The notes: generated by a model from the letters alone, not told the origin. A DNA stretch of 51,475 bases from Armatimonadota bacterium (GCA_016235455.1 JACRKZ010000045.1:2807-54281); one strand, 5' to 3'. Shown: positions 4,601 through 51,319, counted from the stretch's first letter. Program-made: numbers and translations.

Positions 4601-5610
4601 CTGGTCGCTGGTCGCTCTACAACCCCGATGACCCCATCTCTGCGACCGCCGCGAAGGCCGACGCCGACTACCTCGGCGAGATCGACCTCGGCGCAAACAC
4701 CGGCAAGCGCCTCTGGCAGAGCGTCGATGGCGGCTTGACCAGCACGCTGATCTTGGGCGGCAACTTGGTGCGCCTGCGCTGTGGCGCCCACGCCATCACC
4801 CGCGGCGGCGCGGTGCACACCCGCCTCGGCTCGGGCGCGAAGTGGCGTTCGCGCCGTGGCACCAGCTCGCCTTCGCCGATGCTGCTGTGGGTCAGCGAGA
4901 CCGACGACCTGGCCCTGCTCGACGGCGCCAACGCTCGCCAGAGCCGCCGCCACGGTCGCGCCTGGTCGAACGGCCTGCCCGCCGGCGTGGCAACCGTGAC
5001 GGGCACTTGGCACGAGGCTGGCGACCTCACGGCGGCACTGCTCGACCCCGCCGACAAACTTCCCCTCGGCGCCGGCGCCAAGCTGGTCGAAGGTGGCGAC
5101 GTGGACGTCTTCGTGGTCTCCACCAAAGCCGCCGGCGGTACCGCCACGCCGACCACGGTGGCCACCCTGACGGCCGCCCAAGTCGCCGGCGACACCGTCT
5201 GGCCCTGGCCCCAACGTCTCGCCGCCGGCGGTTGGATGGTGGGTTGTCTCGCCGGCGGCCGCTACCACGAATGGCGCGCATCCGACCCCGGCGGCACCAC
5301 CTGGTCAGAGCACGGCACGGGCGATGAGGTGACCTCTGCCGCTGGCGTGAGCTACTGCGCCCACTGGCGCGGCCGCGACGGTATGGAAGCCCTGAGCGCC
5401 TATCACGGCACCGCCCGCGAGGTCCGCATCTGGTGGCGACCCGGAGCAGACGGTGCTTGGCGCGGCCCCTGTTTCACCCACGCCGCCGACCCGACGATGC
5501 CCTACATCTACATCCGCCGAGATGGCAAGGTGGAGTGCGGCTGGCTGGTGGGGACGACCTGGACGCGCTACCGCGCCGACCACCCCGAGAGCACCTGGGA
5601 GACCTGGTAA
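1696..5610 (+). CDS. Large (1304 aa) putative virion structural or receptor-binding protein
   Basis: Long ORF with host-like codon bias; rich in Thr, Gly, Asp and Trp; no signal peptide; Asp-box-like motifs near the C-terminus (SVDGGLT, ASDPGGTTW); coupled to both neighbours. Confidence 0.55.
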   Translation: MSTVTGSWVRVPGETLTVTVSGTLTAALVAMTETEGYGAFTALDEIGVGMLGASVVLRWEHVNRTDGPPDPETYGHRRYFVNVGVPGPVDTAVTEAWSDEYNVAAWDLPGHLGPPFDPGAHDLTVSFGFIITVTAVLKSRLVQIYPDRRQHMHPRDDHFEHTWAITPDTTISVTCAGVTVTSDAYREWGSGLPGYVEPTEDAIWTPVAGIGGAVAANAGATGYTEIAGVSLGAGWSFDGLVAGLVGGPSGTAEHPGSQCLGSGSGITITWDDEAESSATEGYGIGLNATLGPVWQWSPAFSKFDETDTADNLIPRLNAGFAVVQSDHSLLPLTHDADELPTTAARIGYEVLTGVDHSAGLPVGSVTHSGDTFQVSIDPDWALDNGVYAAQEVDLTDTVPIIAQEDDLYCPLDAPGCDHGVGSIDGHRTPVYTISINEPSFYPLAADKDAPTADPNLRWQQTGELPSLRDMPSSPLRWVFPPTIYSETTDPGGTISLPIQHRFHDRLNLLKTQNKEVSWRWYFHFERRAAGSVDTADDPTYGEDLHSAQQAGYLRFQLNKPRWSTLTLTLTIDYSVVDVHDEHYTDGEDRTDAFDWSRTESSATYTIVVPAAGSDFYEGTAAKQHEITVVVDLTCPDDGSTPQLQLLDRLTISGLRLPLCTRGDKPTGFVEGGVVELFTDGTKGLKLSRDQGYDHTGRNTTAAPSAEVSAIETWNFLNDDWECARLRNGAAMRCLRLPGEPWRHGIEEALGYIEPLQHGLDFTGDASLLHYARPLTEFGIAGYNDVIQASLDDAAYAAMGHAGYMYWLATRKRLKAGEAGPGDTLVLDAAIRVATWKLAPGIQSVLTVRKALWGCAEILLKAPGGRRRLTPDYLAETGLAPQYVIYRRTAYQDADGATIADPGGSLPASGTWSHYLDGTIATRLDHHGVWRTPPLPPSKVRFRDPSRPDDPAATHTDVRLTSYLVQVWRSGRWSLYNPDDPISATAAKADADYLGEIDLGANTGKRLWQSVDGGLTSTLILGGNLVRLRCGAHAITRGGAVHTRLGSGAKWRSRRGTSSPSPMLLWVSETDDLALLDGANARQSRRHGRAWSNGLPAGVATVTGTWHEAGDLTAALLDPADKLPLGAGAKLVEGGDVDVFVVSTKAAGGTATPTTVATLTAAQVAGDTVWPWPQRLAAGGWMVGCLAGGRYHEWRASDPGGTTWSEHGTGDEVTSAAGVSYCAHWRGRDGMEALSAYHGTAREVRIWWRPGADGAWRGPCFTHAADPTMPYIYIRRDGKVECGWLVGTTWTRYRADHPESTWETW

Positions 5611-5858
5611 TGGACATCCGAGAGGCAGAGCGCCTACGCCAAGCCCAACGCGACGCCGTGCTCACCAACGGCCCAGACGCCGGCCGAGTAGTCCGCCGAG
5701 TCACCCGCCGCGCCGCCCGCACCGCCGCCGAGCTGGTAGCTCTGGCCGACGCCGACCTCCCCGGTGTGAAGGTCGTGCGCCTTACCGACCCGGATAACGG
5801 CCGCTTCTTCATGTACGGCAAGAGCCCCTACGGTGGAAGCGACGTCTACGAGCCCTAG
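5610..5858 (+). CDS. Small (82 aa) phage-like protein MDIREAERL...FFMYGKSPYGGSDVYEP
   Basis: ATG overlaps the upstream TAA (TAATG). The C-terminal F-x-x-G-x-S-x-x-GG-x-D motif resembles ones seen in phage tail proteins. Confidence 0.6.
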   Translation: MDIREAERLRQAQRDAVLTNGPDAGRVVRRVTRRAARTAAELVALADADLPGVKVVRLTDPDNGRFFMYGKSPYGGSDVYEP

Positions 5859-6171
5859 AGGCCCATTCCAGCTAAGCAAGATCGCAGCAAGATCGGACGT
5901 GCCGATTCCTGTTTTTCGTCGCGGTGTGCAACGGGCATGCGCAGTTGATCAAGACCCCATCCCCCTTCGCCCATCGGCGCGAGTTCGGCTACAACAACAG
6001 GCTGCGCTGCGCCTTGGTCCACGGCGGCGGCCCCCGGGTTGCCGCTGCGTGTCCGAATGTTGCGACAGTGTTGTGTTTGGCCGGCCGCGGCACTAGACCG
6101 GTGTCTCGCAAGGAGATACAACCTGATCACGGGGTTGCGAGGCCCCGGTGAATCGCTAGGGAGGTGTCACC

Positions 6172-6864
6172 ATGAGAAGGCGAGGCGCATTCACGCTGAT
6201 CGAGTTGCTGGTGGTCATTGCCATCATCGCGATCCTGGCTGCCATTCTGTTCCCCGTGTTTGCCAAGGCTCGCGAGAAGGCGCGGCAGTCATCCTGCCAG
6301 TCCAACCTCAAGCAGATCGGTCTGGCTTTCACGCAGTACGCGCAGGACTACGACGAGCGTCTCCCGTTCTGCTATCGCGACTGCATCTACTACAACTGGC
6401 GGGCGGGCGGCGGGCTCAATCCGGCCTGCGGCAACTCGCACTACATCACGAGTACGCAGGCTTACATGAAGAGCGTGCAGATCTGGTTCTGCCCGAGCAC
6501 GAGCCCTGGCGGCTGGTGCCCACCGGGCGCCGGCGACAGTCACACCTCGTACGCCTACAACCAGCAGTGCAACGGCTCGCTGGCCAACATGCCGGCGCCG
6601 GCCGAGCGCTGGCTGGTGGTTGAGACCGGCAAGGACTGCCACGCCGCCGAGGCCGTGTACTGGGACATCAACGGCTCGGGCAACGGCCTGCCGCAGCCCT
6701 ACGGTGACTGGGGCAAACCATGGCCCGACGGCGTGCACATGGGTGGTCGCAACTACCTGTGGGGCGACGGCCATGTCAAGTGGCTGGGCGAGGCCATCGC
6801 CAAGCAGAACCACGAGACCTGGGGCCGCGACTACACCGACCAGCAGGTGTGGTGGCACCCCTAG
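6172..6864 (+). CDS. DUF1559 prepilin-type N-terminal cleavage/methylation protein (H-X9-DG)
   Basis: [45 protein letters not shown]-terminus, [13 protein letters not shown]-terminal motif, SD GGAGGTG upstream. Confidence 0.93.
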
Positions 6865-7889
6865 GGTCTGGCCAGCGCCAGCAGCCGGCGTTGCCACAGC
6901 GGCATGGCCAATGCCGCCGGCGAGGACCAGAGCAGCGCTTCGTAGGCCAGCTCGCGGGGCTGGCCTACGAGCGTTGCCGCATGACCCACCAACACGATGC
7001 GCTCGCCGCTCACCGCATGGCGTAGCCGCGCCAGTTCGGCGCCCACCGTCACGTCAGCACCCAGCGACTCGGCCAGCCCAGCGGCCAGTCCAGCCGCCGC
7101 GTCGGCCTCCGGCGGCAGTTCCACGCGCGGCAGCTCCCACAGGCCGCCCCAGCGCCCTTCGGCTGGCCGGCGGCCCAGTAGCAGTCGCCCGTCGCGCTCG
7201 ATGATCGCCACGACGTGCAGCCTGTCGCGCGGCGCCTTGGCCGGTCGGCGCTCGGGGTAGCGGGTGGCCTCGCCCGCGGCTCGCGCGCGGCAATGCACTT
7301 GTAGCGGGCAGGCGGCACAGTCGGGCGCGGGCAGACAGACTCGCGCGCCCAGCTCCATCAGCGCCTGGTTCCACTCGCCTGGCGCCTGAGCTGGCACCAG
7401 CGCCGCGGCATGGGCGCGCAGCACGCGGCGGGGCTCGCCGTCGCGCGGGTCGCCAGGCAGGGCCAGCAGGCGTGAGAGCACGCGCTCCACGTTGCCATCC
7501 ACCGCCGGCACGCGCTCGCCTTGGGCGATGCTGGCGATGGCACCGGCGGTGTAGTCGCCGATGCCCGGCAACGCCAGCCAGGAGTCGCGGTCGTCGGGCA
7601 GGGCGCCGCCGCGCTCAACCACGGCCCGGGCCGCGGCATGGAGCGAGCGGGCGCGCCGGTAGTAGCCCAGGCCCTGCCACACGGACAGCACGTCGTCGAG
7701 CGGCGCGGCGGCCAAGGCCGAGACGGTGGGGAAGGCGGCCAGGAAGCGGTGGTAGTAGTCGATGACCGTGGCCACCTGGGTCTGCTGGAGCATGATCTCG
7801 CTGACCCAGATGGCGTAAGGGTCGACCGTGTGGCGCCAGGGCAGATCGCGCGCCTCCGCGCGGTACCAGTCGAGCAGGGCCGAAACCAT
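6861..7889 (-). CDS. mutY: A/G-specific adenine DNA glycosylase
   Basis: [48 protein letters not shown], Fe-S cysteines and a C-terminal NUDIX-like domain. ATG at 7889 lies just after the ftsA stop. Confidence 0.95.
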
Positions 7890-45714: not shown

Positions 45715-47982
45715 CTAGTGGATGAGCACGAACTCCTTCGTGTTCATCAGTGCCCACAGGAAGTCCTGGAAGGCCGTGGCGCGGTCACCCGCGTGGCTGG
45801 CCAGATGGGCTCGGATGGCCGCGCGCTCGGTGTCGTTGGGCAGTCGCGACAGCGACGCAAGGTAGAACTCATCGATCACCGTATCGTCCGGCTGCCCGCC
45901 GGCCAACAGTCGTTTCAGCCGCGGGCTGTTGAGCACGCGGTTGTCCACCGACGTGGAGTTGAGCAGGTGGGTCACCTGGCGCATGGAGGCGCGCGAGCAG
46001 CGGTCGGACTCATAGGGCGTGTCGCGCGGCGGCCGGCCAAAGAGCTCGAGGAACGGCGTGATGATCGAGCCATCGGCCACCTGGGCCGCGCGCGTGGTGC
46101 TGGGCAGGTAGGTATACGGCTCGGGGATGACGCTGCTGAACGACTCGTTGGTCTCGGTGATCTGGCAGATGGCGTCGATGAGCTGCTCGGCGCCCATGCG
46201 TCGCGCCGGGTAGTGGGCGAAGAAGCCCTGGTCGCCCTTGTTCTGCGCGGTCGGCGTGCTGGAGCGCTGATAGGTCTCGGAGTTGAGGATGACCCGGAAC
46301 AGGTGCCGCAGGTCGTAGTTGTGGCTGGTCAGCTCGCCCGCCAGGTAGTCCAGCAACGCGCTGTTGCTGGGCGGGTTGGTGGGCCTCATGTCGTCGGGCT
46401 CCTCGACGATGCCGCGGCCCAGCAGCCAGAACCAGACCCGGTTGGCCAGGTTGCGCGCGAACCACGGATTGTTGGGCGCGGTCAGCCAGTTGGCAAAGAC
46501 CAGCCGCGCGTCGGCGCCCGGTTCGAGGGCCGGCGCTTCGCCGCCGAGGACGGTGGGGGTCACCACCTGCTTGGTGATGGGATGCTTGAACGTGGCGTCG
46601 GGATCGAGGTAGACCACCTCCTCTTTCCATTCGCCGGTGCCCTTGAACTTGACCTGCGCGAAGAAGGCGGCCAGTCTGGCATCGTCGTCCACGGTCCAGG
46701 GCTCGTCGGGGTGCCCATGGCAACGGGCGCAACTGACGCGCGCGCCCATGAACAGCAGCGCGGCGATCTCCGCGTGGCTGAGCGGGTCTTTACTGTTCAC
46801 GCCGCGGTAGAAGTTGGCGGGTCCCGAGCGGAAGTTGCTGCCCGAGCTGACCAGCAACTCGCGGGCAAACTGGTCGTAGGGCTTGTTGGCCACCAGGCTG
46901 TCGCGCACCCAGCGGTAGTAGGTCTGCACCCCCTTGGGCCAGATCTTGACCGGGTACTCGCTCTTGATGCGCAGCAGGTCGCCCCACTTCAGCGCCCAGA
47001 AGTCGGCGAACTCGTCACGTGCCAGCAAGCGGTCGATGAGCTTGGCGCGTTTGTCCGCGGCGCTGTCGGCGGCGAAGGCGCGCACCTCGTCGGGCGTCGG
47101 CAGCAGCCCGATGACGTCGAGGTACACGCGCCTCACGAACTCGGCGTCGGTGCAGCGCGGGCTGGGCGGCAGACCCAGCAGCCGGAGCTTGGCCAGCACG
47201 GCCTGGTCCAGCGGGTTCTCGGTGGCCATCTCGGGGAACGGCTCGGCCAGCTTGTGCGGCACGAGGATCAGCGTCACCCCCGACAGGCGCCGGTAGGTGG
47301 CCACAAGCACGCTCTGGCCCGGCTCGCCGGCGGTCACCTGGCCGGCCGGCGATACCTTGGCCACACCGGGCAGCGAACTGCGGAAGGAGGCCAGCGCCGT
47401 CACATCACGGCTGGTGCCGTCGGAGAAGGTGGCGGTGACCTTCAGGTCGAGCGCCTCGCCGCTGGCCAGCAGCTTGTCGCGCAGGCCCGTGCTCACGCCG
47501 CGCAGCAGCGGCTTGGCGGGGTCGCGGTCCTCGGTGCCGCGGGCGATCCATGTCAACAGCGTCTGGTAGGCCTCGGAGTCGACCGGCGCCAGCTTGCCGC
47601 CGCCGTGGGGCAGGTCGCCCGACAGCTTGAGCAACAGCAGGCTGCGCTCGGGCATCATGCGGTTCACGCGCCGGCCGCCGGCGGCCCGCGACAAGGCGTC
47701 GCAGTCGGCTTGCGGGTCCGCGCCGAACATGGACAGCTTCATGCCGCCCTTGCCCACCGGCGCACCGTGACAGTCCAGATTGGCGCAGCCCAGCCGGCCG
47801 ATGAGCGGTGAGACGTCGTTCTCGTAGTCGGTCACCTGGGTGCGCGCGTTGCGCCGCGCCAGGGTGGTTTCCGTGGGGAGAGAGGGCACCAGCGTGGTCT
47901 TGCCGCGGGTCGTGCCCGCGGGCTGGGCGGCCAGACCAGTCGTCCACAGCACGAAGCCCAATGCCGACAGCAGCCTCAGCAC
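45715..47982 (-). CDS. DUF1549/DUF1553 protein with Ig-like domain and heme-c-like motifs
   Basis: CANLDCH, RRVYLDVIGLLPT, CARCH, NRVWFWLLGRGIVE.PDD, LNSETYQRSS, KEFVLIH. Start placed at the GTG with SD GAGG and a signal peptide. Confidence 0.88.
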   Translation of the reverse strand: MLRLLSALGFVLWTTGLAAQPAGTTRGKTTLVPSLPTETTLARRNARTQVTDYENDVSPLIGRLGCANLDCHGAPVGKGGMKLSMFGADPQADCDALSRAAGGRRVNRMMPERSLLLLKLSGDLPHGGGKLAPVDSEAYQTLLTWIARGTEDRDPAKPLLRGVSTGLRDKLLASGEALDLKVTATFSDGTSRDVTALASFRSSLPGVAKVSPAGQVTAGEPGQSVLVATYRRLSGVTLILVPHKLAEPFPEMATENPLDQAVLAKLRLLGLPPSPRCTDAEFVRRVYLDVIGLLPTPDEVRAFAADSAADKRAKLIDRLLARDEFADFWALKWGDLLRIKSEYPVKIWPKGVQTYYRWVRDSLVANKPYDQFARELLVSSGSNFRSGPANFYRGVNSKDPLSHAEIAALLFMGARVSCARCHGHPDEPWTVDDDARLAAFFAQVKFKGTGEWKEEVVYLDPDATFKHPITKQVVTPTVLGGEAPALEPGADARLVFANWLTAPNNPWFARNLANRVWFWLLGRGIVEEPDDMRPTNPPSNSALLDYLAGELTSHNYDLRHLFRVILNSETYQRSSTPTAQNKGDQGFFAHYPARRMGAEQLIDAICQITETNESFSSVIPEPYTYLPSTTRAAQVADGSIITPFLELFGRPPRDTPYESDRCSRASMRQVTHLLNSTSVDNRVLNSPRLKRLLAGGQPDDTVIDEFYLASLSRLPNDTERAAIRAHLASHAGDRATAFQDFLWALMNTKEFVLIH

Positions 47983-48105
47983 GCCAGCCTCATCTCGCCT
48001 ACCTCTATCTTGATACCCATTCGCCGCGAGCGCCACGCCTCCTGCCGCGATGCATTTGGAGTCGCGCGCGCCGTAGGCTATCATGCGCGCCTGGTGGAGG
48101 CGACC

Positions 48106-49056
48106 ATGACAGAGACACTGGACCGTTGCGTGCTGCGGGGCGGGGAGCAGGCCGAACTGGTGCTCGTGACCGCGCCGCAGGTGCCGGACGCGTTGGCCGT
48201 GCGCGCGTTGCTGGGCCACAAGGGCGGGGTGTGGGAGTACCACATCGACCAGGCCCTGGCGGGCGAGTTGGAGGGTCTGGAAACACGCTTCTACCTGGCC
48301 CTGGTCGGCGGTCGGGCGGTGTCCAACGTTATGACCGTCGAGAGCGGCGGCGTGGGCATCCTGGGCCATGTCTGGACGGTGCCCGAACAGCGCCGCCAGG
48401 GCCTCTGCGATGCCATCTTCGCGGTGCTGCAGCCCCACTTCCTCGCGCGCGGCGGGCGCCGGTTGCTGCTCGGCACCGGCTACGACAGCCCGCCGTACCA
48501 CATCTACCTGCGCCACGGCTGGCGGCCGATCCTTGAGCGCCGAGGCTTCATGGATTGGCAGCCGGTGCCGACACCCGCTGCCGGACCGCCCACGCGCGTC
48601 GTGCCCTATGCCTGGCGCCACTGGCCGGCGCTGGCGCCGCTGTTTGCCGACGGCGGCGCCGATGGCCTGCAGGCGCTCGGCTTCCGCTACTTCGGACCGG
48701 AGAACTTCGAGTGGCCCGGCCTGGACCTGCGGCAGCGAGTAGCCGAGCGCGACGACACCTTCGCCTTCGTGGCCGAGGCCCAGGACGGACGGCCCGTCGG
48801 CCTCGTCGTCCAGGCGCCCGACGCGCGTTGGCAGGGCAATACCAACGTCGATCTCGTCTGCCTGCCAGGCTCCGAAGCGGCGCTGGGAATGATGCTGGCG
48901 GCGCTGCCGGCAGCGGAAGGCAAGCGCCAGTGCTGGCTGCCGAGCGTCAGCGCCCCGCGCCGCGCCGCGCTGGAAGCGGCTGGTTGGCGGCTCGAAGCCA
49001 CGCTCGCGGCACAACTGCCCAACGGTGGCGACGTGGTGGTCTACAGAGGACGATAA
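48106..49056 (+). CDS. Tandem GNAT-family acetyltransferase
   Basis: HVWTVPEQRRQGL, YHIYLRHGW, second GNAT-like lobe; SD GGAGG. Confidence 0.8.
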   Translation: MTETLDRCVLRGGEQAELVLVTAPQVPDALAVRALLGHKGGVWEYHIDQALAGELEGLETRFYLALVGGRAVSNVMTVESGGVGILGHVWTVPEQRRQGLCDAIFAVLQPHFLARGGRRLLLGTGYDSPPYHIYLRHGWRPILERRGFMDWQPVPTPAAGPPTRVVPYAWRHWPALAPLFADGGADGLQALGFRYFGPENFEWPGLDLRQRVAERDDTFAFVAEAQDGRPVGLVVQAPDARWQGNTNVDLVCLPGSEAALGMMLAALPAAEGKRQCWLPSVSAPRRAALEAAGWRLEATLAAQLPNGGDVVVYRGR

Positions 49057-49130
49057 ACGGTGTCAGGGACCTTTTCGCACGCGAAAAGGTCCCTGACACC
49101 GTTTATCGTCCTCTGTAGACCACCACGTCG
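49029..49130. repeat. Inverted repeat with perfect 50-bp arms and a 2-nt spacer, spanning two convergent stop codons
   Basis: 49029-49078 is the exact reverse complement of 49081-49130. Confidence 0.97.
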
Positions 49131-51256
49131 GCAAACTCGCACAGCCCCAGGTCGCCCGGCTCGGTGTGGTCGGTGCGGCCCGCGTCGAAGGGCACCTTGC
49201 CCACCATCAGGCGCCTGGGCTGGGTCTCGCCCGAGAGGCGGTCGATGCGCAGCCGCCGCCAGGTGATGCCGTCGCGCGATGACTCGGAGACAACGTAGTG
49301 GCCGGCCAGGCGCAGGCGTAGCCAGACCCACTCGCCGGCCGGGTAGCCGTCATAGAGTACCTGCTCGCCCGGCCGGTCGGTCTGCAGCCGGTTGTCTGAG
49401 CGCAGGCCGAGGCGCGCGCTGCTGGTGCCCGCCCAGAGGGCCATGGCCGGCCCCCACGACATGCCGCTGTCGCTGGTCATGCGCAGGCGGCAGGTGACCG
49501 CTGTCGCCTCAGGCGGCAGGTCGCGCTCGATCCAGGCGACGGTGTGGCGGTTCGCCGCGATCCTCAGCACCTTGTCACCGCCCCTCAGACTGCCCGCGCC
49601 GCGCGGGCTGAGGTAGGCGCGCCAGCCACCGGGCAGGGCGGTCTCGAGCCCCTTGGGCGGACTGGGGTCGGGTAGCCTCACGGCCAGTGCCGGGTCGGCG
49701 AAGTCCTCGCGCCAGAGGGCGGTCAGGCCGGGTTGGTCGTCGGCCAGGACGCGCGCATACTCGCGCCGCTCCGCCTCGAACGCTGCCTGGCGCGGCGCCT
49801 GCCGCGCTGCCACGCGGGCCTCCAGCTCGGGCGTGAGTGCCGGCCAGTAGTACTTCTTCATGCCGGCCAGGCGCTGGTCATCGTCCGCCGCGGGCAGGAA
49901 GTGCAGGCGGATGTTGTTGTCCAGCAGCGTGCCGACGAAGCTCTCGGTCAGTGGATACTGGTTGTTGTTGCATAGCACGCCGATGGCATTGCTGATGTTG
50001 TGGGTGGAGACGAAGTAGCGCAGGTAGTCGGGGTCGGAGTACTGGGCCTCGGTGCCCTCGCCGCGCAGCACGTAGTCGTAGTACGTGTCCATCTGCGGCA
50101 GGTAGACGCCACCGCCCGGCGGGCTGCCAGTGCCGTGGAACTCCAGCAGGCCCTTGTCGCCGACTATCTCGCGGGCCTTGCGGCTGACCAGATACGAACG
50201 TACGACGCTGCCATAGATGCCGTCGAAGTACAGGCCCGCGGGCTTGTACTCGCGCATCACGCGGCCGATCTCGGCGACGAAGATGGGCCAGTTCATGCCG
50301 CGCGGATCGCCCGGTGAGAAGCCGGTCTCGGCGAAATGGTCGAAGCTGTTCATGGCCTTCGATTCGAGATCGGTGCCGGCCAGGAAGTACAGCGGCGAGG
50401 TGTAGACGATGTTGCGCATGCCCAGCCGCGCGCAGGTGGCGTTGACGCGCTCGAACTCGCCGACGCCCAGGCGCGGCACGAAGCGCAGGCTCCAGTCCTT
50501 CCACAGCATGACCTCGGCCTGCTGCAGCAGGATGTTGGCATACTGGCTCCAGGCCCGGATGGCGTCGTCGGCCGGGTAGGCGTTCTCGCTCGACCAATGC
50601 CAGGCCACGCGCTCGCGGAGCGACTGCGCCCAGGGATAGGGGCGCGGCGGGCCTACGGCCAGCCACCAGATCTGCCCCGCCTGCAGAGCGCTGGTGTGCC
50701 CGCGATCGCCGGGCAGGTCGACGGTGTGGCCCTCGCCCGTCGCGAAGTACGTGCCGACGTAGCCCCACTCGTCCAGCAGCAGGCGGTCGCCGACGATGGC
50801 GCGGGCACTGGCCGGCTGGAAGGCGAGCTCGCAGCGCAGTTCCATGGCCCGCTCGGTGCGCAGCATCAGCAGCGAGTCACCATTGATGCGCAGGCGCAGA
50901 CCGCCCGCGGCGCCGGTCAAGCTGACCGCGCCCGAGCCCAGTCGCTCCGCCTTCAGCCCGGCCAGTGCGCCCGCGGCGAACGTGACTCGCACCACCTGGC
51001 GGGCGCGCGCCAGCAGCTGCCGGACAGCCAGCGTGCCGGCGGTCGTGTCGAACGTGAACTCCGCACCGGTGGTACGAACCACGATGCGCCCGGCTTCGCT
51101 GCGCAGACCGGTGATGGCCATGCCATACTGCGCGTCGCGGAAGTCGGTGGTGGTAAGCAGGTAGTCCGCATCGGCCTCAATCGACGGCGACAGCGTCGGC
51201 TCGGCCGCCGACGCACAGCCGCACCATGCCACCAGGACCCAGGCAACCCACCTCAT
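49103..51256 (-). CDS. Secreted glycoside-hydrolase-like protein (putative TIM barrel plus C-terminal beta-sandwich)
   Basis: Signal peptide from ATG 51256, IVYTSP, GLYFDG, LRGE, C-terminal WLRL...SRDGITW...FADVVVY. Confidence 0.55.
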   Translation of the reverse strand: MRWVAWVLVAWCGCASAAEPTLSPSIEADADYLLTTTDFRDAQYGMAITGLRSEAGRIVVRTTGAEFTFDTTAGTLAVRQLLARARQVVRVTFAAGALAGLKAERLGSGAVSLTGAAGGLRLRINGDSLLMLRTERAMELRCELAFQPASARAIVGDRLLLDEWGYVGTYFATGEGHTVDLPGDRGHTSALQAGQIWWLAVGPPRPYPWAQSLRERVAWHWSSENAYPADDAIRAWSQYANILLQQAEVMLWKDWSLRFVPRLGVGEFERVNATCARLGMRNIVYTSPLYFLAGTDLESKAMNSFDHFAETGFSPGDPRGMNWPIFVAEIGRVMREYKPAGLYFDGIYGSVVRSYLVSRKAREIVGDKGLLEFHGTGSPPGGGVYLPQMDTYYDYVLRGEGTEAQYSDPDYLRYFVSTHNISNAIGVLCNNNQYPLTESFVGTLLDNNIRLHFLPAADDDQRLAGMKKYYWPALTPELEARVAARQAPRQAAFEAERREYARVLADDQPGLTALWREDFADPALAVRLPDPSPPKGLETALPGGWRAYLSPRGAGSLRGGDKVLRIAANRHTVAWIERDLPPEATAVTCRLRMTSDSGMSWGPAMALWAGTSSARLGLRSDNRLQTDRPGEQVLYDGYPAGEWVWLRLRLAGHYVVSESSRDGITWRRLRIDRLSGETQPRRLMVGKVPFDAGRTDHTEPGDLGLCEFADVVVYRGR

Positions 51257-51289: not shown

Positions 51290-51319
51290 AGTGTAGGCTT
51301 CGCCTTGTGTGGGCGTCAA
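51290..51319 (-). promoter_or_regulatory. Promoter TTGACG-N18-TACACT
   Basis: Hexamer match upstream of the 51256 start. Confidence 0.5.

Follow-up and report, generated by a model that had tools for sequence, protein, structure and literature searches.

Inverted doublets of repetitive extragenic palindromic (REP) units that form a hairpin, known as REPINs, occur in Pseudomonas fluorescens SBW25 together with a REP-associated tyrosine transposase (RAYT), as described in the relevant passages of PMC3116915. For inverted repeats in Proteobacteria, the sections of PMC5941160 considered here report correction of one arm by the other and concerted evolution of arms through template switching; related work on quasipalindromes is found in parts of PMC7202029 and in Ripley 1982 and Lovett 2017 as cited there. 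Template switching can also rewrite proteins, with up to five neighbouring amino-acid replacements in one yeast gene (PMC8604942, in part), and both arm expansion and the one-step creation of long perfect hairpin stems are on record (portions of PMC13100816 and PMC8794818).

Here we describe a 51,475-nt stretch of a metagenome-assembled genome (MAG) of an Armatimonadota bacterium (GCA_016235455.1, JACRKZ010000045.1:2807-54281), called the window throughout. It contains a 102-bp palindrome between two convergent genes, one for a GNAT-like acetyltransferase and one for a glycoside hydrolase-like (GH-like) protein, which end in the same residues. With a probability of roughly 0.68, the palindrome is a REPIN whose stem was lengthened by 24 nt outward, most likely in one templated event that copied the GNAT end into the GH-like gene. 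Element type and mechanism are both known, and the palindrome is a clean, unusually legible new instance.

The elements of this genome resemble the SBW25 REPINs, as far as the cited account describes them, in being intergenic hairpins built of inverted doublets of a short repeat with an invariant core, in having a variable but complementary spacer, and probably also in the presence of a single-copy Y1 (HUH) transposase gene beside copies (PMC3116915). They differ in that the units measure about 23 nt and the spacer 8-22 nt, whereas 71 bp separate the cores in SBW25. Further differences from that account are that the host looks like a member of the Armatimonadota, that nearly the same core occurs in several phyla, and that the stem studied here enters two coding regions by 24 nt. 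As in quasipalindrome template switching, an imperfect repeat would have been perfected through two switches that leave clustered multi-nucleotide changes. The experimental cases covered in the consulted sections of PMC5941160 are confined to a single gene or to an intergenic hairpin and involve short arms (about 5-20 nt), whereas here a 26-nt REPIN arm would be the seed, the tract measures at least 24 nt, the stop codons of two genes are involved and the ancestral state is a reconstruction. Arm homogenisation and expansion are also shared with the eukaryotic cases, which in the parts of these sources considered concern yeast and RNA genes (PMC8604942, PMC8794818, PMC13100816), unlike the presumably mobile bacterial repeat and the two convergent genes with a shared C-terminus found here. 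Within the limited collection of literature searched, we found nothing relevant on gene ends overwritten by REP or REPIN stems, or on such stems at convergent genes.

The palindrome and the two gene ends

The two arms of the palindrome (Table 1) are exact reverse complements over 50 nt with 0 mismatches, and the spacer between them is asymmetric. A repeat finder run on the window reported longer arms, 49026-49078 and 49081-49133, which are 98% complementary. Of each arm, 28 nt consist of one wobble base, eight codons and TAA, and the remaining 22 nt are repeat. The GNAT-like open reading frame (ORF), on the plus strand, ends in GGDVVVYRGR with its stop codon TAA at 49054-49056, and the GH-like ORF, on the minus strand, ends in FADVVVYRGR with TAA at 49103-49105. 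Inside the arms, the last eight codons, the stop codon and the wobble base are identical in the two genes. The reverse-complement script and the ORF calls bear out what an earlier note, made from this DNA alone, had reported about arm length and spacer, about the division of each arm into coding sequence and repeat, and about protein ends that agree even at synonymous sites.

Table 1. Features of the palindrome and its flanking genes, in window coordinates
Feature	Coordinates	Strand	Description
GNAT-like acetyltransferase gene	48106..49056	+	316 aa and TAA; last 8 codons and stop in left arm
GH-like gene	49103..51256	-	717 aa from the ATG used in database entries; 738 aa from an upstream TTG at 51319
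Left arm of perfect palindrome	49029..49078		50 nt
Spacer AC	49079..49080		Asymmetric, 2 nt
Right arm of perfect palindrome	49081..49130		50 nt
Outer left arm, locus-specific	49029..49052	+	Wobble base and GNAT codons D V V V Y R G R; inferred donor
Outer right arm	49107..49130	-	GH-like codons D V V V Y R G R; inferred recipient (overwritten tract)
REPIN proper	49053..49106		Two inverted REP units, core GGTGTCAGGGACC, short inner stem, spacer AC

When folded as RNA, the region forms a 50-bp stem of -107.3 kcal/mol (z -16.5; 0 of 200 shuffles equalled it), and as single-stranded DNA it folds at -70 kcal/mol. Because these fold scores are extreme and the 13-nt core GGTGTCAGGGACC is expected by chance only 0.08 times in the window, a chance origin of the palindrome is excluded. 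An Rfam scan of 48800-49400 gave no family at gathering score; the only matches were to four microRNA-precursor models, all sub-threshold, as any long hairpin would give.

The stem is composed of two parts. The inner ~54 bp are a REPIN of a RAYT-associated family, in which the link to the RAYT is probable, and its flanks, ATAAAC and GTTTAT, hold the stop codons of both genes. The outer 24 nt of each arm are the coding end of the two genes and are locus-specific, since 14-mers and longer words that start in about the outermost 20 nt occur nowhere else: those tested (14-mers from arm offsets 2-23 and 16-mers from 0-23) have two occurrences in the 6.5-Mb genome, both in this palindrome.

The codons of the shared tail are rare in this genome. 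AGA accounts for 0.9% of Arg codons, CGA for 5.2% of Arg codons and GGA for 3.2% of Gly codons, and TAA is used in 223 of 3096 stops. Because synonymous sites, four rare codons, stop and 3' flank are all identical, a copying event is needed; an independent origin of the same rare-codon string, spacing and flank in two genes appears implausible. That copying took place, in which direction, and whether in place or together with the creation of the gene adjacency, is what we infer from the comparisons below.

Most of 19 aligned GNAT relatives end in GGDV(V/A/L)(V/L)Y followed by 2-4 residues, with V at the middle position in 8 of the 19; tails were additionally listed for 120 matches. The nearest relatives, P0134 and P0002 (~77% identity), end in DVVVYTG and DVVAYTG, and their Y-T-G-stop is one residue shorter than the Y-R-G-R-stop of the window protein. 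A GNAT protein of another genus (G002, locus L012; 50% identity) has PNGGDVVVY nucleotides identical to those of the window, followed by a different tail, which is supportive but weak evidence for a GNAT donor. On the GH-like side, ten database relatives with 53-62% identity over the last 259 residues end in ADVKVY (three), ADLKVY, AEVKVF, ADVRVY, DDVTVY, AEVTVY, ADVSVY or TAVKVY, and beyond this motif they carry unrelated tails of 3-12 residues. One distant relative ends in YARVF, and six more distant copies in related genomes end in ARVEVY, AQVEVY, GAVTVY, SEVRAW, SEVRVY and LGVRAY. A middle V is present in 0 of 16 GH-like relatives.

These alignments show that both families natively end in D-V-x-V-Y plus a short tail, so that no wholly foreign C-terminus was acquired and the shared C-terminus is largely native. 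At the single discriminating position, the shared end of the window is GNAT-like, and its tail resembles those of the nearest GNAT proteins. By appearance, the donor was the GNAT end and the recipient the GH-like end, and the orthologue comparison proposed in the earlier note points to the GH-like gene as the one overwritten (middle V in 0 of 16 versus 8 of 19). The predicted change in the GH-like protein is small, about one internal residue (K/T/R to V) and a 3-residue tail. Furthermore, no indel is needed to align the GH-like end with those of its relatives, which argues for replacement in register, as expected for a return at homologous codons. That note had also reckoned that native ends of this kind in both families, written in divergent codons, would speak against copying; D-V-x-V-Y ends are indeed native to both, but the codons of the two genes are identical.

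In the event that we propose, DNA synthesis would pause or fold back at the REPIN hairpin between the convergent genes, and the opposite arm would then serve as template, as in a quasipalindrome template switch. The GNAT 3' end (DVVVYRGR, TAA and REP flank) would be copied as its reverse complement until synthesis switched back, without loss of register, to the first template at the native D-V-x-V-Y codons of the GH-like gene, whose last codons, stop and 3' spacer would thereby be replaced. The imperfect precursor repeat would have consisted of the REPIN arms plus the native D-V-x-V-Y ends. The net change in the protein would be small because both families already ended in this motif and a short tail, and it would hence be tolerated. 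Among the origins first suggested for this palindrome, the one that best fits the 24-copy family, the RAYT-like gene beside one copy, the unique outer arms and the orthologue ends is a REP doublet from which template switching extended the symmetry into both genes, with one C-terminus rewritten as a result.

Such an event would make the locus a natural example of a presumably mobile hairpin repeat seeding a template switch large enough to rewrite a neighbour's C-terminus and stop codon. Identical C-termini, even at synonymous sites, could then arise without selection or gene transfer. For annotation, the locus carries the caution that coding sequence can form part of REPIN stems.

The REPIN family and its RAYT-like transposase

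The MAG comprises 6.5 Mb in 185 contigs, is 93% complete and has 69% G+C; it appears to come from groundwater. The core GGTGTCAGGGACC has 55 matches, which form 24 inverted pairs and 7 singlets. The exact hairpin pattern is found in 24 copies, with 0 for a reversed control pattern, and has 0 copies in 40 relatives, which include one genome of the same genus (80% complete). Each REP unit is a small imperfect palindrome, two inverted units make the hairpin, and most copies are located shortly after the stop codon of a flanking ORF. Four pairs have the ATAAAC variant of the flank. The genome-wide count of core copies that had been advised revealed a sizeable family; on whether other doublets extend into their flanks, which the earlier note had also proposed to test, the arms of pairs agree outside the core and several reach stop codons.

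A scan of the genome for perfect palindromes with a minimum arm length of 25 nt and a maximum spacer of 8 nt returned 20, all of which contain this REP unit, 16 with the exact core and 4 with a variant core. Their perfect arms measure 26-52 nt, and the 102-bp palindrome is the second longest after one of 106 bp on contig C131. Across loci, positions 4-19 outside the core carry little information; the arms within one pair agree in 42-100% of 24 pairs, as compared to 24-58% for different pairs (24 of 25 paired rows were counted, one at a contig end being dropped). Because pair arms agree where loci do not, arm-to-arm symmetry beyond the conserved element appears to be a habit of this REPIN family, with the 102-bp case as its extreme. 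Since all long perfect palindromes found here are REPINs whose arms agree beyond the core, the pattern suggests that REPINs ordinarily evolve with homogenisation between their arms.

REPIN arms reach stop codons at C84, C131 and C18:11192. At C18:11192 the same flank TAA terminates a 932-codon ORF, and both there and at C84 the stop codons are supplied by REP flanks. Nested extra REP units are present on both sides of the copies at C131, C174, C18 and C130. The palindrome at C131:44527-44632 is perfect over its 106 bp, with 52-nt arms and a nested second REP unit on each side, and its arm holds the TGA of the right-hand 375-codon ORF. At C84:34265-34326, two convergent ORFs both end in GGC-TAG inside the REPIN arms, a miniature of the present finding; the left one has just 89 codons and may not be a gene. 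A second repeat sub-family, with core GGTGTCAGGACCC, is found at C169:72139, C146:158, C176:5001 and C8:72548 and likewise forms perfect palindromes, with arms of 28-37 nt. For other copies, we considered REPIN insertion into an older terminator stem; this idea does not apply to the 102-bp palindrome, in which the outer stem is coding.

The same core is present beyond this genome. Other species hold an exact core pair at 7 loci, two of them in a Burkholderiales MAG and the others in a Neobacillus, three Planctomycetota MAGs and a Gammaproteobacteria MAG. The resemblance of the core to a REP-like repeat of Planctomycetes, which had been noticed from the sequence, is supported by the three Planctomycetota MAGs, with the qualification that the host itself, judged by the names of its nearest GNAT homologues, looks like a member of the Armatimonadota and not of the Planctomycetes. 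REP sequences are normally lineage-specific, and nearly the same core across several phyla is unusual.

Pfam Y1_Tnp has three matches in the genome. One of them, a 227-residue protein encoded on contig C129, scores 43.5 bits (cut-off 23), and a REPIN and a singlet lie 50-110 nt upstream of the start of its gene. A sequence search of solved structures with this RAYT-like protein gave no match. Two genomes of other phyla have a Y1 gene flanked on either side by inverted units that differ from the core at one position. These bracketed loci are L127 in G045, a Planctomycetota MAG, and L128 in G044, a Gammaproteobacteria MAG. Neither of the two Y1 loci of G041 has bracketing units, and the Neobacillus genome (G042) has no Y1 match.

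Of the two kinds of gene that had been thought worth looking for, a RAYT or a telomere resolvase, the first is represented by the RAYT-like gene that adjoins one REPIN copy, whereas a resolvase of the ResT/TelK family (PF16684) has no match in the genome. An SbcD homologue, above the cut-off, and an SbcC-like protein, below it, are encoded on separate contigs (C74:13232-14017 and C85:15408-18404). Palindromes of ~100 bp would thus persist despite a probable hairpin nuclease.

Read-derived support and alternative explanations

Read support was taken from Logan k=31 contigs of public runs, which are not raw reads. In runs X1 and X2, the contig on the GNAT side ends at 49058 and that on the GH side at 49101, each 30 nt into its arm and without a mismatch; contigs of two flanks that run together in a common arm would be expected to end at precisely these positions. 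The centre is included in a 62-nt unitig that matches 49049-49110 perfectly, and in X3 a single contig spans 48771-49078. Run X4 belongs to an independent study and contains a strain with about 98% likeness; its contigs cover 49158-49471, outside the palindrome. Three GH-like strain variants that differ at 1-4 residues all end in ADVVVYRGR.

Several results weigh against templated copying from the GNAT gene into the GH-like gene. The pre-event state is present in no ancestral or sister-strain sequence, so that the event itself has to be reconstructed. The earlier note had called for reads across both arms; both junctions and the centre are present in the k=31 contigs, but no Logan record spans the whole palindrome or both arms. 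The central unitig has a depth of 4.6 compared to 25-31 in the flanks (X1) and 5.2 compared to 8-11 (X2), which could be due to under-sequencing of the hairpin or to heterogeneity, and the flank depth ratio is 1.2 in X1 and 0.69 in X2. The best NCBIfam match of the RAYT-like protein on C129, 'REP-associated tyrosine transposase' (REP_Tyr_transpos), scores 62.5 bits and stays below the cut-off of 80, and no REP units were found downstream of its gene, making the arrangement one-sided in this genome. The codon match with the G002 GNAT gene would occur by bias alone with an estimated probability of about 7%, calculated over five codons with genome codon frequencies. Finally, the tail motif DV.V[YFW] is found in 4 of 6052 tails of ORFs with high G+C at third codon positions (GC3), and two of the four are these neighbours. 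In-place conversion explains the rarity of two such neighbours by hindsight alone, in that none but such a pair could tolerate conversion and be noticed.

The other two ORFs with this motif adjoin each other on the minus strand of contig C3 and end in …DVCVWLEAC and …DVCVWLAPAAKG. Their offsets, 4855-5929 and 6500-7556, count from the contig's reverse-complement end and are not plus-strand coordinates.

A tentative alternative, which we consider rather unlikely, is that REPINs routinely copy the flank of one arm onto the other and that the palindrome is the scar of a microhomology-guided fold-back rearrangement that created the gene adjacency. The nascent strand would copy the GNAT end in reverse and land on the single other gene of the genome with a matching D-V-x-V-Y end. 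If true, this would explain why two of only four motif ORFs are neighbours, and also why the GH-like gene was not found beside the GNAT gene at the other loci considered. A metagenome scan with the GNAT alignment gave 80 loci, none from the same species and 0 of 80 with a GH-like homologue; the best locus has 54% identity over the full length. At the loci of seven relatives, no GH-like gene was seen just downstream of the GNAT gene on inspection by eye, for which no search was run, and where GNAT and GH-like genes of the 40 relatives were inspected, they have other neighbours. REPINs that grow routinely in this way would supply adjacent genes with stop codons and replace their 3' ends.

An assembly artefact, in which a REP hairpin common to two loci led MEGAHIT to join them or to fold the contig back, so that the perfect outer arms would not lie on one molecule, is improbable. 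It draws on the fragmentation of the MAG into 185 contigs, on the position of the palindrome 2.3 kb from a contig end, and on the read results given above (no bridging record, low central depth and a flank depth ratio that varies between runs). Contig C88 ends exactly in a 90-bp REPIN palindrome (C88:80152-80241), which suggests that some REPIN hairpins do break the assembly. On the other hand, the independent k=31 contigs of X1 and X2 place the shared 28 coding nt in reads on both sides, and no alternative flank is on record because the outer 24 nt are confined to this locus. In addition, 58 contig-end overlaps of exactly 141 nt indicate that the MAG was assembled at k=141, and any k above 52 resolves the palindrome because the asymmetric spacer then links each flank to one orientation. 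The identical ends of the three GH-like strain variants argue in the same sense, and misassembly is unlikely.

We regard copying in the opposite direction, with the GH-like end as donor and the GNAT end overwritten by the same templated event, as no more probable than the artefact. GH-like relatives too end in D-V-x-V-Y with a short basic tail, e.g., ...VYAGRR and ...VYRR, and the rare-codon tail is atypical for either gene, which would fit this direction. The distribution of the middle V, the nearest GNAT tails, whose Y-T-G-stop is one residue shorter than Y-R-G-R-stop, and the DVVVY codons shared with the G002 GNAT gene all stand against it.

A still smaller chance is left for an origin without copying, in which selection for a longer stem, in RNA or DNA, would have made similar native ends identical by point mutations. 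It is compatible with this that D-V-x-V-Y ends are native to both families and that the arms of other copies agree outside the core, and compensatory changes in REPIN stems are described as common in the relevant part of PMC3116915. The process would, however, require stepwise matching of at least 12 further nt in two coding ends, including four of the rarest codons, the stop and the spacing, and the inner stem with its U-rich tail is already terminator-like without the outer 24 bp.

Slightly less likely again is the insertion of the entire 102-bp unit, together with both gene ends, as a longer mobile variant of the REPIN. The nested copies at C131, C174, C18 and C130 and the REP flanks that provide stop codons at C18:11192 and C84 lend it some plausibility, but the outer 24 nt have no other genomic copy, and what they encode, in the correct frame and register, is exactly the C-terminus that is native to and conserved in the GNAT family. 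A hairpin telomere or a resolvase or recombinase site, which the earlier note had listed as an option, is highly improbable: perfect symmetry and a k=31 graph that cannot separate a fold-back end from a join are all that speaks for it, whereas the 93%-complete genome lacks a ResT/TelK (PF16684) match, 23 other hairpin copies lie inside contigs between ordinary genes, and the palindrome is internal to a contig that continues past it and has genes to its left and right.

Transcription termination and the flanking genes

A scan with a terminator consensus detected the 20-bp inner stem (12 G-C pairs) followed by TTTATCGT on both strands, with a TTTAT tail, giving two terminator-like sites as compared to 0.2 expected in shuffles. 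The inner REPIN stem with UUUAU is thus probably still a two-way terminator that acts before the outer arm is transcribed. Because both transcripts may end before the outer arm is made, the extension of the stem may be nearly neutral at the RNA level. The predicted hairpin resembles two-way intrinsic terminators in lying directly past both stop codons with a terminator pattern on both strands, and differs from them in that the stop codons and the last 8 codons lie inside the potential stem. Liang, Rudd and Deutscher reportedly found in 2015 that REP elements near stop codons affect translation.

Rickettsia palindromic elements are inserted in frame in protein-coding genes and are translated. 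As in that case, palindromic repeat DNA becomes translated at the present locus; unlike in Rickettsia, the translated stem would be native gene sequence copied across and not the element itself, except for the TAA of the flank.

For the GNAT-like protein we found 131 homologues, many with precomputed PF00583 or PF13508 matches; the window protein itself stays under the Pfam cut-off (16.7 versus 20.7 bits). The GH-like protein matched no Pfam or NCBIfam family. Its AlphaFold model (mean predicted local distance difference test score, pLDDT, 75) has an N-terminal beta-sandwich, a central alpha/beta barrel and a C-terminal beta-sandwich, and the presumably rewritten end is the last long strand (residues 703-715) of the latter. 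In a Foldseek search with this model, the best matches were GH31-type glycosidases (E about 1e-11) with template modelling (TM) scores of merely 0.25-0.29, and the modelled protein thus loosely resembles this type.

Very long ORFs overlap on both strands at 45715-49014 (-) and 45718-47811 (+), as is usual at 69% G+C. Judged by eye, the minus-strand ORF has a planctomycete-type DUF1549/DUF1553-like sequence, and its 5' extension, which overlaps the GNAT gene, is probably untranslated.

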